From the NCBI RefSeq assembly GCF_054482525.1, contig NZ_CM137006.1: 64,000 nt of DNA, one strand, 5' to 3'. Position 1 is the stretch's first letter. Each line of letters opens with the position of its first letter. Position numbers: made by a program. Shown here piece after piece: positions 59,801-62,800 of this stretch.

Positions 59801-62800
59801 TTCTCTTTTTCCAGTTCGGCGTATTTGTCTGCGGCTTCAACCAGCGACAGATCGGCCTGCTGGTGACGGATGGCGTCCAGGCGATCGCTGAGACGTTTGA
59901 TTTCGTTTTTTTCGACTTCTTTCATGTGATGGCTTCTGATAAAGATAAATTTATAGCCCCTAGTATGCGCGACCAGGTGCTTTGTTCACAACTGATGACA
60001 TTGCAATAGTTCTATAACGTAAACATTAACATGCTTAAAAACTACGCAATTTATTGATTAATTAAGAAATTTAAAGAAAAAAGATAGTTAATAGAAACGG
60101 ATGATTATTGAGGATTGAGCACGTTTTCCTTAATGTCATTTATACCGGGATCTAAACTAAAATTGGCGGCCGCGCATTCCCGGCGCGGGGTAATACGGAG
60201 ATATCATCATGGGCAAATTAGGTGAAAACGTTCCGCTTCTTATCGATAAAGCCGTAGATTTCATGGCATCGAGCCAGGCGTTCCGGGAGTATCTGAAAAA
60301 ACTACCTCCCCGTAACGCGATTCCGTCCGGAATACCTGATGAAAGCGTGCCGTTATATCTACAACGTCTGGAGTATTATCGTCGGCTTTATCGGCCGAAG
60401 CAGGTAGAGGGGCAGTAAGCAGACGTTGCTTACTTTTGGAAGGCTTTTTTTAAGCTGATTTTGGAAATCAGCTCTGTCAGTGAAAGGACCATTGTTGATC
60501 GCACAGCCTGTTGGTAACGCTGAATTTGCATTGCATACAAACTGGAGTCTGCAGGTTCAAACTGTGGCGGCGGTGGTAACGCCGCCACGCAATGCAGTTC
60601 ACCAAAGGGTCCAAGGATTTCGTCGTCGGTAAACGCGTACTCGTTGCCGTCGTGATTTAGCTCTTCACGCAATGCCATCAGCAGTTCCGCATCTTCGTAT
60701 TCCTGGCGGTTAATGACACCCAACCCGTAAATGAGTTTTAAACGCACAGAAAGATCGCCCAGCGGACCGTCGCCGTCGAGTAACGGTTCTACAGCATACT
60801 TCACCGCGTAATCGTCTTTGCGGAATACCTGAAGCACCAGAAGATTTACCGCCTCGGTCAAAAGCTCGACGGCGGTGATCAGAAAGCTTCGCACGGTTTT
60901 GCCAGCATTCAGACGCTCAAGCACACGGTTTTCAAAGGCCTGGGTTTGTTCCATTGTTGCCTGCATATCTGACAATCTGTTATTCGGGCGCAGGGTGTCC
61001 TGCGCCTGGTCCACCATTATTGCATTGCTTTATAAGCGGTTACCGCCTCGGATACAACCTCGCTGTTGGCATCAAGACCGGAAATCTGTGCCAGCGCGGC
61101 TTGTGGGCCTTTGTCGGCAATCAGCGCTGCCAGTTCCTGAGCCTGCGGATCATCTTCACTGCGGAAGTGCATTGCAGCGGCAATACCTTCAATCAGGTTT
61201 TTATGTGGCAGACCATATTCCAGCGTTCCGAGCAGTGGCTTGATCAGACGGTCGCCAGCACTCAGTTTACGCAGCGGCTGACGGCCTACGCGCTCTACAT
61301 CATCTTTCAGGTACGGGTTCTCGAAACGACCGAGGATTTTCCGGATGTACGCCGCATGTTTGTCTGCGTCAAAGCCGTAGCGCTTGATCAATACTGCACC
61401 ACTTTCTTCCATCGCACCTTTTACCACCGCGCGGATTTTCTCGTCGAGAATAGCGTCACGAATGGTCTGATGACCGGCCATTTTTCCGAGGTACGCGGTT
61501 ATAGCATGACCTGTATTCAGGGTGAAGAGTTTACGTTCGACAAATGCCATCAGGTTGTCGGTTAACTCCATGCCTGGAATGTTCGGCAACGCGCCTTTGA
61601 ACTGGGTTTTATCAACAATCCATTCGCTGAATGTTTCTACCGTCACTTCCAGCGGATCGTTGGTTGCAGAAGCCGAAGGCGGCACGATGCGGTCAACGGC
61701 GGAATCGACAAAGCCAACGTGTTCTTCTACCCACGCTTTGGCATCTTCCGGCAGGGCGTTCATTATATGGCCTTTCAGCTGCGTGGTGCCGCGTACCATG
61801 TTTTCACAGGCGATGATGTTCAGTGGGGATTCATTACCTTGTTCTTTACGTTTCACCAGCCCTTTGGCGATTGCCGGGGCAATACGTTCCAGCACAACCG
61901 GACCAACGGCGGTAGTGACTAAATCAACCTGAGCAATCAGATCAACGACATCATCACCAATGCTGCTGACGGCATTGACGCCGGAAACGGTATCTACCTG
62001 CTCGGTTTCACCGACCACATGAACCTGATAGCTATGACGGGCATTCAGGGCATCAAGTACCACCTGATTGATATCGGCAAACGTCAGTTGGATACCCGCG
62101 TCTGCCAGCAGTTTACCGATAAAGCCACGACCGATATTACCTGCGCCAAAATGTAATGCTTTCATAGTATTAACCTTCATCAATGTTTTTACCCGAGAGG
62201 GCTGGGGTGAGGCTTTTCCCTCACCCAAACCCTCTCCGTGAGGAGAGGGGCCGCGCCGGATGCGGCGTAAACGCTTTATCCGGCCTACAAGAACGTGCAA
62301 ATTCAACAAACTGCGCTTTGTTTTGTAGGCCTGATAAGCGTAGCGCATCAGGCAATAAGCCCCACCTTCTCCATGTGGAGAGGTGGGATTGGATTACTTA
62401 CGACCTGCCAGCAGTTCCAGCACTTCATCCACGCTGGTGGTGTGTGCCAGACGCTCGATGACGGATTCATCATCCAGTGCATTGGTCAGGCTGGTGATAA
62501 CCTGAATGTGCTCGTTGTTACGGGCAGCAATACCAATCACCAGACGGGCAATGTCATCTTCTTCTTCACCGAAGCGCACGCCTTCCGGGTACTGGCAGAA
62601 CACCACGCCCGTTTTGAGTACGCGATCTTTCGCTTCAACCGTACCGTGTGGCACCGCGATAGACTCACCCAGATAAGTCGGGGTCAGTTTTTCACGATCC
62701 AGCATCGCCTGAACGTATTCTGGCTCAACGTAACCGCCTTTCACCAGCTGCTCGCCAGCAAAACGAATCGCTTCTTCTTTGGTTGCCGCTTTGCGACCGA

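Follow-up and report, generated by a model that had tools for sequence, protein, structure and literature searches.

In work of 1987-88 (cited in PMC2267715 as its references 11-12), Newbury, Higgins and colleagues reportedly found that the REP stem-loops of the malEFG and hisJQMP operons stabilise the mRNA upstream of them, and the 1988 paper on the sequence of the mtl operon is said to have noted REPs in the mtlA-mtlD spacer. The BIME-1 and BIME-2 elements, and the variation in their copy number among strains, are defined in PMC3333891. The BoxC family (PIT, TMECO and the HPG1-HPG2 G4-hairpin) has been published as another set of dispersed repeats, described in PMC4666352 and PMC5100583. According to PMC4666352, BoxC-type motifs have pyrimidine, purine and mirror purine blocks of at least 7-8 nt and loops of at most 6 nt, and the PIT/BoxC tests summarised there detected neither promoter nor terminator activity, nor any effect in vivo. 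Here we describe the mtlA-mtlD spacer in a 64,000 nt stretch of Escherichia coli DNA (contig NZ_CM137006.1 of assembly GCF_054482525.1), referred to below as the window. This spacer is a composite of these two known kinds of bacterial repeat, located inside the mtlADR transcript.

Composition of the mtlA-mtlD spacer

The identities of mtlA and mtlD follow the annotation in RefSeq of an E. coli record that is 100% identical. The mtlA stop codon is TAA (bp 62394-62396) and the gene extends past the end of the window. mtlD starts at an ATG (bp 62165-62163) with an N-terminus (12 residues) that is conserved in 80 loci, and its Shine-Dalgarno sequence is GAAGG (bp 62178-62174). The mtlD frame stays open as far upstream as an ATG at bp 62348, but an N-terminal extension was rejected because the spacer lengths of different strains (94 to 520 bp) differ by non-multiples of three and because the start as annotated is conserved together with its ribosome site. 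A site scan of the spacer identified neither a sigma-70 promoter nor an intrinsic terminator, no promoter-like site of its own was found here for either mtlD or mtlR, and the K-12 RefSeq record has no repeat feature in this spacer.

Table 1. Features of the mtlA-mtlD region, in order of window coordinates
Feature	Position (bp)	Strand	Basis or detail
mtlD, mannitol-1-phosphate 5-dehydrogenase	61017..62165	-	ORF list and RefSeq annotation
mtlA-mtlD spacer	62166-62393		228 bp; genes on minus strand
mtlD leader, A-rich, unstructured, GGGTAAAAACATTGATGAAGGTTAATACT	62166..62194	-	alignment of orthologous spacers
B-like copy, truncated inverted partner	62195..62213	+	3 mismatches to purine-block pattern
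Alternative hairpin	62195-62212 with 62219-62236		18-nt arms, 89% complementary
Hairpin P2	62205-62226		62205-62212 pairs with 62219-62226
A-like copy, BoxC/PIT/TMECO-type motif	62218..62249	-	1 mismatch to GGGAGAGGGNNNGGGTGAGGG, 0.03 expected by chance
A-like second purine block, GGGTGAGGG	62226-62218	-	
Hairpin P1	62230-62249		8 bp, fully complementary; perfect inverted repeat
A-like purine block, GGAGAGGG	62237-62230	-	then loop TTT
A-like pyrimidine block, CCCTCTCC	62249-62242	-	then loop TCAC
REP unit, Y type	62255..62288	+ (consensus reading)	1 mismatch to consensus
L linker of BIME-1, 36 nt	62289..62324	-	recurrence across genomes, ubiA-plsB alignment
REP unit, Z1 type, mRNA-strand GCCTGATGCGCTACGCTTATCAGGCCTAC	62325..62353	-	0 mismatches to consensus
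Hairpin H1, mRNA sense CCCACCTCTCC-ACAT-GGAGAAGGTGGGG	62360..62387	-	folding
mtlA 3' part, PTS mannitol transporter IICBA	62394..64000	-	ORF list and RefSeq annotation

A preliminary description of this DNA had placed a dense REP/BIME cluster in the spacer, with at least two inverted REP-like units and additional GC-rich hairpins. Its boundaries for the spacer were exact and its two inverted units were recovered as a Y and a Z1 REP on opposite strands (Table 1), with 0 such matches expected by chance based on shuffled sequences. The consensus strings used were cross-checked against the ubiA-plsB BIME. Going by the conserved REP tail TTATCMGGCCTAC, the whole window has no REPs other than these two. 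The units stand in inverse orientation, each turning its GTAG/CTAC end toward the linker (foot tetranucleotides in GGCCTAC / GTAGGCC at bp 62282-62288 and 62325-62331). This linker recurs at a median of five places per E. coli genome and can be aligned to that of the ubiA-plsB BIME, another element laid out as Z1-L-Y; with the whole spacer as the query, the corresponding median was 15 (5425 genomes). An IHF-like core in the linker (CAGTTTGTTGAAT, mRNA sense) is degenerate, agreeing by inspection with 7/9 specified positions of YAANNNNTTGATW, and the best match to the IHF consensus WATCAANNNNTTR is 7/9 specified positions in the window and 8/9 in K-12. The two REPs are a single BIME-1 (Z1, the 36-nt L linker and an inverted Y) of approximately 100 bp. 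The assignment to REP/BIME stands and the density does not: there is one BIME-1, and it spans less than half of the spacer. The Z1 hairpin is predicted to fold at -13.2 kcal/mol (z = -4.0) and the Y hairpin at -16.1 kcal/mol, and the two units can pair as one long hairpin (-43.6 kcal/mol, z = -4.6).

Folding of the spacer RNA in the mRNA sense indicated the strong structure that had been anticipated (-107.4 kcal/mol compared to -71.3 +/- 4.8 in shuffles, z = -7.5), and the values for individual hairpins range from -13 to -38 kcal/mol. Besides the REPs there are three GC-rich hairpins (H1, P1 and P2) plus an alternative long hairpin, and the additional hairpins do exist; they are not REP-like and belong to a different published family, BoxC/PIT/TMECO. 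The idea that every GC-rich hairpin here is a REP was rejected, with just two units fitting the REP consensus or tail. H1 begins 6 nt past the mtlA stop codon, folds at -20.2 kcal/mol (z = -4.1) and is a diverged direct duplicate of P1 (a 20-nt direct repeat, 85% identical). It is confined to Escherichia, is missing from the 94-bp allele described below, and shows compensatory variants when the E. albertii and E. whittamii spacers are read directly.

Judged by their sequence, the 55 bp adjoining mtlD appear to hold two BoxC-type motifs placed head to head, the second one truncated. The A-like copy has all three blocks of BoxC/PIT/TMECO; pairing of its first two blocks gives P1, and CCCTCTCC-TCAC-GGAGAGGG-TTT-GGGTGAGG can be read as 8 consistent triplets (G*G, A*A, T*A). 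The B-like partner (GAGAGGG-CTG-GGGTGAGGC on the + strand; GCCTCACCC-CAG-CCCTCTC in the mRNA sense) contains the CTG loop, lacks a pyrimidine block of its own, and pairs with the A-like purine blocks to form P2 and the alternative long hairpin. Alone, this module is predicted to fold as the long hairpin at -37.7 kcal/mol (z = -3.7). The family types have a TTA (A) or CCG (B) loop and 9-nt blocks, whereas the E. coli mtl copy has a TTT second loop and 8-nt blocks; in most other genera, the orthologous copy has a canonical TTA/CTA loop and 9-10-nt blocks. Four G3 tracts, the criterion for a G-quadruplex, were not found at this site in the window, where the first tract is GG (CGGAGAGGG), but they are found at the mtl site in most other genera (GGGAGAGGGYTAGGGTGAGGG).

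A single copy of the module in its exact mtl form is found in each E. coli genome; for the BoxC family consensus, the median is 19 places. The core motif also matches unrelated metagenome contigs, among the matches listed. The mtl copy (near 3.774 Mb) is missing from the MG1655 lists in two papers (Table 1 of PMC4666352 and Table 1 of PMC5100583), and mtl is unmentioned in the accessible supplementary material of the BoxC-family papers. On the basis of the single E. coli copy and the conservation in ~73 species, we entertained the possibility that the mtlD-side module was an undescribed, locus-specific regulatory RNA; this was rejected because of the metagenome matches, the median of 19 consensus places and the two papers that describe the motif. 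The strain of the window is without the canonical BoxC pair that K-12 carries between lldD and trmL.

Strain variation and family-wide conservation

Among 59 sampled E. coli chromosomes, 38 have a 228/229-bp spacer, 10 have a 94-bp spacer without REPs, and 11 have spacers of 217-520 bp that contain between two and eight REPs. The resulting allele series of 94/217/228/318/419/520 bp corresponds to 0/2/2/4/6/8 REPs. The 318-, 419- and 520-bp alleles contain between one and three additional 101-bp Z2-S-Y units, and one lineage has a BIME variant with a truncated linker plus one to three 101-bp Z2-Y units. The short form was identified in 946 of 5425 genomes (~17% of E. coli). REP clusters had been put forward in the preliminary description as hotspots for IS insertion and rearrangement, with a comparison of spacer length among strains as a check. 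As this length does vary, the site does rearrange; no IS insertion at the spacer was seen in the 59 sampled chromosomes. The BIME at mtlA-mtlD is both dispensable and unstable, and its contribution must be small because ~17% of E. coli genomes are without it. Repeated independent deletions giving rise to the 94-bp allele were considered and rejected, because three strains drawn from different identity classes have a common junction and carry the same diagnostic SNP.

REPs are lacking from the mtlA-mtlD spacer of most other Enterobacteriaceae. The BoxC-type module is present in ~73 of 78 enterobacterial mtlA-mtlD spacers, mostly REP-free, and in these ~73 species the pair lies at a constant distance from the start of mtlD, ahead of the ribosome site. 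Its blocks show 91% identity to E. coli compared to 54% at four-fold silent sites, and the mtlD leader shows 84% identity to E. coli in 68 non-Escherichia species, again compared to 54% at silent sites. The BoxC-type hairpins are the older, conserved part of the spacer, and the REPs a later addition that is dispensable and lineage-specific. Other genera carry a single REP, an ERIC-like insert or tandem arrays at the same spot.

The pairing of the BoxC-type module is also retained. A P1 of 8-12 bp with freely varying loops is found in ~66 of 73 sequences. In the long hairpin, 91.4% of cells are paired and seven pairs have changed on both sides; 0 of 500 shuffles paired as well and slid controls reached at most 58%. 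Compensatory changes are found in the linker and P2, and traits specific to the locus (the truncated partner and the CAG linker) have been kept. On the mRNA strand, G.U pairs exceed A.C by 93 to 52, or by 93 to 8 if one fixed mismatch column is removed, and the mean gap between the two alternative folds of the pair is just 3.2 kcal/mol. As the helices are inverted repeats in the DNA as well, pairing statistics alone cannot separate RNA-level from DNA-level selection; related structure-free sequences are known to exceed the shuffle control, and gene conversion with the ~20 other family copies, instead of local function, could account for the block conservation.

Candidate roles of the spacer hairpins

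We see about an even chance that the spacer hairpins act as RNA barriers that uncouple the fates of mtlA and mtlD mRNA. The old, fixed element near mtlD is the BoxC-type pair, and a conserved open leader with the ribosome-binding site follows it. In the mRNA, this pair could fold either as two hairpins (P1 and P2) or as one hairpin of ~19 bp (P2 and P3), since its purine block GGAGAGGG has a CCCTCTC partner available on either side. In the Escherichia lineage, a BIME-1 would have been added between the mtlA stop and the BoxC-type pair, bracketed by the duplicated H1, and the 94-bp allele would represent BIME loss in one lineage. BIME DNA may be a substrate for the REP-associated transposase, slippage or recombination, which would explain the allele series. 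When transcribed between the cistrons, the stem-loops would block 3'-to-5' exonucleases and may provide a double-stranded processing site; with such barriers in place, the mtlA and mtlD-mtlR segments could decay at different rates. mtlD would be translated from its own exposed ribosome site, and the REPs would contribute to the barrier without being required for it. By analogy, the mRNA stabilisation and differential expression that had been suggested for REP clusters are plausible for the mtl REPs. A literature search found no mtl expression, RNA-end, decay or REP-function data.

A narrower proposal is that the BoxC-type pair is a conserved, bistable cis-acting RNA whose two folds (~3 kcal/mol apart) set the mtlA:mtlD ratio via processing, decay or ribosome access. 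We consider this doubtful; if true, it would be the first biological function for any member of the widespread BoxC/PIT/G4-hairpin family, after 30 years without one. The mtl copy appears to be the most promising site at which to look for a BoxC/PIT function because it is fixed before one gene throughout a bacterial family while other copies come and go between strains.

An unlikely but serious alternative is that both the BIME and the BoxC-type pair are selfish or neutral repeats that are hard to lose or are re-homogenised through gene conversion with copies elsewhere in the genome, with no effect on mtl expression. This is consistent with the presence/absence and copy-number polymorphism of the BIME, which carries no obvious cost, with the missing lldD-trmL pair of the window's strain, with the differing repeats found in other genera at the same spot, and with the literature, which finds no function for PIT/BoxC elements and ties them to instability. 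Neutrality does not readily predict a fixed distance to mtlD in ~73 species, block identity of 91% against 54% at silent sites, retention of the truncated partner and CAG linker, or compensatory changes in the linker and P2 with loops that vary freely and stems that do not. The preference for G.U-type pairs on the transcribed sense strand also argues against a DNA-level element, in which an intrastrand triplex or a G-quadruplex of the purine blocks, together with a BIME-1 bound by IHF and gyrase, would shape local supercoiling, replication or polymerase stalling instead of mRNA. Such an element would draw on the three blocks, which fit the purine-motif triplex rule (given in PMC4666352) over 8 triplets, on the four G3 tracts of most genera, on the putative IHF-like core in the linker, and on the triplex and G4 formation shown for family members in vitro. 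In E. coli and other Escherichia, the first G tract is just GG, the IHF core of the window is degenerate, and in vivo tests of PIT elements gave negative results; we regard a DNA-level role as improbable.

The least probable of the explanations considered is an attenuator, in which partial termination within the structured, C-rich spacer (either Rho-dependent, of the kind reported for certain BIMEs, or hairpin-induced) leaves more mtlA transcript than mtlD and mtlR. BIME-linked attenuation has been published (Espeli et al. 2001, as cited in PMC2267715), a terminator role has been proposed for intra-operon family members (PMC5100583), and in Pantoea the unrelated spacer, read directly, shows a T-rich run after a hairpin. 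The E. coli spacer contains no site resembling an intrinsic terminator, its hairpins lack trailing U runs, and PIT elements had no terminator activity in the cited tests. Moreover, mtlD and mtlR need read-through because they have no promoter-like site here. The natural allele series (0, 2, 4, 6 and 8 REPs with an otherwise identical junction) could be used to measure the effect of REPs on polycistronic mRNA.

Comparison with known systems

Taken as a whole, this is an ordinary finding whose elements are of known kinds, and a REP/BIME between mtlA and mtlD is textbook E. coli repeat biology that matters little. In Rfam, the spacer had no match at the gathering threshold: the best was naRNA4 (REP325, RF02564) at 33.2 bits versus a threshold of 59.5, with others at chance level, and this weak likeness of a non-member comes from the shared REP hairpin. 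Like other BIME-1 elements (RIB/RIP), the mtl element has an inverse Z1 and Y with GTAG/CTAC ends toward a long conserved linker, and it is a single intergenic copy at the 3' end of a cistron, laid out as in ubiA-plsB. It differs in the degenerate IHF core of this strain (7/9; 8/9 in K-12) and in being bracketed by the H1/P1 duplicate of a non-REP hairpin. The extra 101-bp Z2-S-Y units of other E. coli strains match the tandem variation published for BIME-2 and atypical BIMEs, whereas the window has a single Z1-L-Y element and no tandem units. As in malE-malF and hisJ-hisQ, transcribed REP stem-loops lie between cistrons of a sugar or transport operon, downstream of its transporter gene; unlike in those stabilisers, the mtl REPs are missing in ~17% of strains and the conserved part is a pair of non-REP hairpins.

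With BoxC/PIT/TMECO, the mtl pair shares the three blocks, short loops and intergenic location, and probably the head-to-head arrangement of a TTA-like and a CCG-like copy; other genera carry the exact canonical core (GGGAGAGGGYTAGGGTGAGGG) at the mtl site. The E. coli copy differs in its 8-nt instead of 9-nt blocks, its TTT loop and a partner without a pyrimidine block, and it falls outside the 23 copies listed for MG1655. In contrast to the BoxC loci reported to be prone to rearrangement, the mtl copy is fixed at one orthologous position family-wide.

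Anatomy of the mtlA-mtlD spacer

The spacer between mtlA and mtlD is 228 bp in length and has exactly the coordinates assigned to it in the preliminary description. The stretch is 100% identical in the window and E. coli PCN033, with mtlA and mtlD as the flanking genes in the RefSeq annotation. At least two inverted REP-like units and additional GC-rich hairpins had been reported here, and both are present: two REPs with 0 and 1 mismatches to the consensus (chance expectation: none), which are the only REPs within the 64-kb window, and the non-REP hairpins H1, P1 and P2. Each spacer hairpin is stable when folded singly, and the spacer RNA as a whole folds at -107.4 kcal/mol (z = -7.5 versus shuffles).

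Features of the mtlA-mtlD spacer in mRNA-sense order (minus strand)
Feature	Position	Remarks
mtlA stop	62394-62396	followed by 6 nt before H1
Spacer	62166-62393	228 bp
Hairpin H1	62387-62360	
Z1-type REP	62353-62325	
Linker	62324-62289	36 nt
Y-type REP	62288-62255	inverted
Hairpin P1	62249-62230	
Hairpin P2	62226-62205	
Third CCCTCTC block	62201-62195	
mtlD leader		29 nt, open, Shine-Dalgarno GAAGG, directly before the ATG
mtlD ATG	62165-62163	

The REPs had been described as a dense REP/BIME cluster, a reading that does not hold. In the definition of Ton-Hoang et al. (PMC3333891), a BIME-1 occurs singly and joins a z1 REP to an inversely oriented y REP through a long, conserved linker, often with an IHF site; in BIME-2 and atypical BIMEs, z2-y units are repeated in tandem and vary in number among strains. 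Because this BIME-1 definition fits, because the 36-nt linker recurs (median 5 places per E. coli genome) and because the ubiA-plsB BIME has the same Z1-L-Y layout with a linker that aligns, the REP part is a single BIME-1 of ~100 bp, a standard element of a well-characterised kind. The other hairpins are members of another known family, here called BoxC-type.

Allelic variation in E. coli

Of 5426 complete E. coli genomes, 5425 gave a match to the spacer query, and an even-step sample of 60 rows, minus one plasmid match, gave 59 chromosomes with spacers of 94 to 520 bp. The 228/229 bp form of K-12 and the window was found in 38 chromosomes, the 94 bp form in 10 and the 318/319 bp form in eight, while spacers of 217, 419 and 520 bp occurred once each. 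The reduced coverage typical of the short form was seen in 946 of the 5425 genomes, in line with its share of the sample. The 318-, 419- and 520-bp alleles carry one, two and three additional Z2-S-Y units of 101 bp, giving 4, 6 and 8 REPs, respectively, and in the 217-bp allele Z1 is followed by a truncated linker and then by a degenerate Y.

The 94-bp allele lacks both REPs and H1, with its junction within the repeated CCCTCTCC. Three such alleles, found in different backgrounds that include O157:H7-like strains, have an identical junction and a diagnostic SNP in common, and the allele therefore has a single origin. As E. albertii, E. whittamii and two further Escherichia representatives all carry H1 and two REPs, the short form is most simply interpreted as a later deletion. 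The existence of REP-free alleles among strains indicates that the BIME is dispensable for the mtl operon, and the site does rearrange, judging from these sequences. Of the proposed hotspot, rearrangement is thus borne out by the allele series, while the spacers of the 59 sampled chromosomes showed no IS insertion; overall, the preliminary observation is confirmed and its interpretation supported in part.

H1 and P1 are diverged copies of one hairpin in direct orientation (20 nt, 85% identity), and they flank the BIME on either side. This duplication, together with the 94-bp junction in the shared CCCTCTCC, could be the footprint of BIME entry or a substrate for deletion. Upstream of the true mtlD start, no stop codon interrupts the frame for 61 codons; it crosses the BoxC-type pair and the REPs and reaches an ATG at 62348, and the resulting mechanical ORF (443 aa, 61017-62348, minus strand) is a possible gene-calling trap. 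The extension was rejected as non-coding because spacer lengths differ by non-multiples of three.

The BoxC-type pair adjoining mtlD

The 69 nt adjoining mtlD occur in exact form once per E. coli genome, in 5405 genomes. From the mtlA-mtlD junctions of 80 enterobacterial species representatives, 78 spacers were extracted, most of them 95-140 bp in length and without REPs. The same module recurs in ~73 of the 78, with CCCTCTCCC, a loop of 3-6 nt, GGGAGAGGG, YTA and GGGTGAGGG, followed by a variable loop of 5-20 nt, CCTCACCC, CAG, CCCTCTC and then GGGTAAAAACATTGATGAAGGTTAATACT-ATG. An exact-pattern scan with GGGAGAGGGYTAGGGTGAGGG matched at least 120 metagenome contigs; among the matches listed, these ranged from 31 to 72% GC, with unrelated contexts and often inverted pairs. 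E. coli genomes contain the family consensus at 19 places each (median), and a literature search with sequence strings showed that the motif had already been published: Holder et al. 2015 (PMC4666352) describe it under the names BoxC, PIT element and TMECO, and Kaplan et al. 2016 (PMC5100583) present it as a G-quadruplex-hairpin-duplex switch. The metagenome spread, the ~19 genomic copies and the published motif rule out an undescribed conserved RNA.

The 23 catalogued MG1655 copies are all intergenic and fall into types A (TTA loop) and B (CCG loop), frequently as head-to-head A+B pairs; no function is established for any copy, and earlier tests found neither promoter nor terminator activity (PMC4666352, PMC5100583). 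Holder et al. tied the motif to genomic instability (PMC4666352). Neither MG1655 list has an mtlA-mtlD entry, and the supplements checked contain no mtl. Because the mtl element satisfies the three-block rule over 8 triplets, fits the purine-block pattern with 1 mismatch and is absent from both lists, it is classified by sequence as a slightly degenerate, previously unlisted family member; its truncated, inverted B-like partner fits the purine-block pattern with 3 mismatches.

At lldD-trmL, the junction is 15 nt in the window (49095-49109) versus 165 nt in K-12 MG1655, and the window lacks the canonical head-to-head A+B pair (nos 17-18 of the MG1655 list) that K-12 carries there. This locus shows a presence/absence polymorphism of the family, unlike the fixed mtl copy. 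The distance from the mtlD start to the lldD end is ~13 kb in the window versus ~6.6 kb in K-12, and a 1750-aa ORF (53025-58277, minus strand) lies between the mtl and lld genes.

Ten of the enterobacterial spacers, including those of Citrobacter werkmanii/youngae, carry repeats that differ between genera at one position, after the mtlA stop and before the BoxC-type pair: an ERIC/IRU-like insert of ~125 bp, four units of ~43 bp in tandem, one REP of the Salmonella/Citrobacter type or additional inverted BoxC-like copies. Small repeats seem to land recurrently at this position. A GC hairpin shortly after mtlA is also present in four of the few spacers that lack the pair; CCCTCCC-loop-GGGAGGG is found in three 61-nt spacers of this kind, and a Pantoea spacer contains two unrelated hairpins, of which one precedes a T-rich run. 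A stem-loop of some kind may be a common requirement at this junction.

Constraint and possible roles

The BoxC-type blocks of 68 non-Escherichia species are 91% identical to those of E. coli and the leader is 84% identical, versus 54% for the four-fold silent sites in mtlD codons 1-150, and the mtl copy is unusually well conserved for its family. P1 is an 8-12-bp stem with freely variable loops in ~66 of 73 distinct sequences. An alternative to P1 and P2 is a long hairpin of ~19 bp (alignment columns 27-45 with 64-82), in which 91.4% of cells are paired and 7 pairs have changed on both sides, as where the linker CTA/CAG becomes TTC/GAA or CCA/TGG. None of 500 shuffles paired as well, a control that related sequences can exceed even without structure, and slid controls reached at most 58%. 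The two folds are mutually exclusive, with a mean difference of 3.2 kcal/mol; in 68 of 73 sequences the long hairpin has the lower energy, and the predicted minimum is the two-hairpin form in the full E. coli spacer and the long hairpin in the isolated module.

We consider it unlikely that the mtl copy functions in the mannitol operon as a bistable RNA element. Its sequence could be maintained by gene conversion with other copies of the family, and the spacer repeats may simply persist as neutral or selfish elements. The helices are inverted repeats in DNA as well as RNA, and DNA-level effects (triplex, G4 or IHF) may be involved; the IHF core of the linker is degenerate in the window (7 of 9 specified positions; 8 of 9 in K-12), and the excess of G.U over A.C pairs on the mRNA strand (93 versus 52, or 93 versus 8 without one fixed mismatch column) leans towards pairing in the transcript. 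Rho-dependent attenuation at the spacer may also occur; mtl-specific RNA data were not found in the papers searched.

The sequences show the anatomy, family assignments, polymorphism and conservation of the spacer; for function, we infer a role in mRNA decay. Because the stem-loops all lie within the mtlADR transcript, and a scan of the spacer found neither sigma-70 promoter nor intrinsic terminator patterns, they should act as barriers to 3' exonucleases. Decay of the mtlA segment would be independent of that of mtlD-mtlR, mtlD would initiate from its own open leader, and the ~19-bp helix might be an additional processing site. The proposed barriers would be analogous to the REPs of malEFG and hisJQMP, covered by references cited in PMC2267715, which are established blocks to 3' exonucleases.
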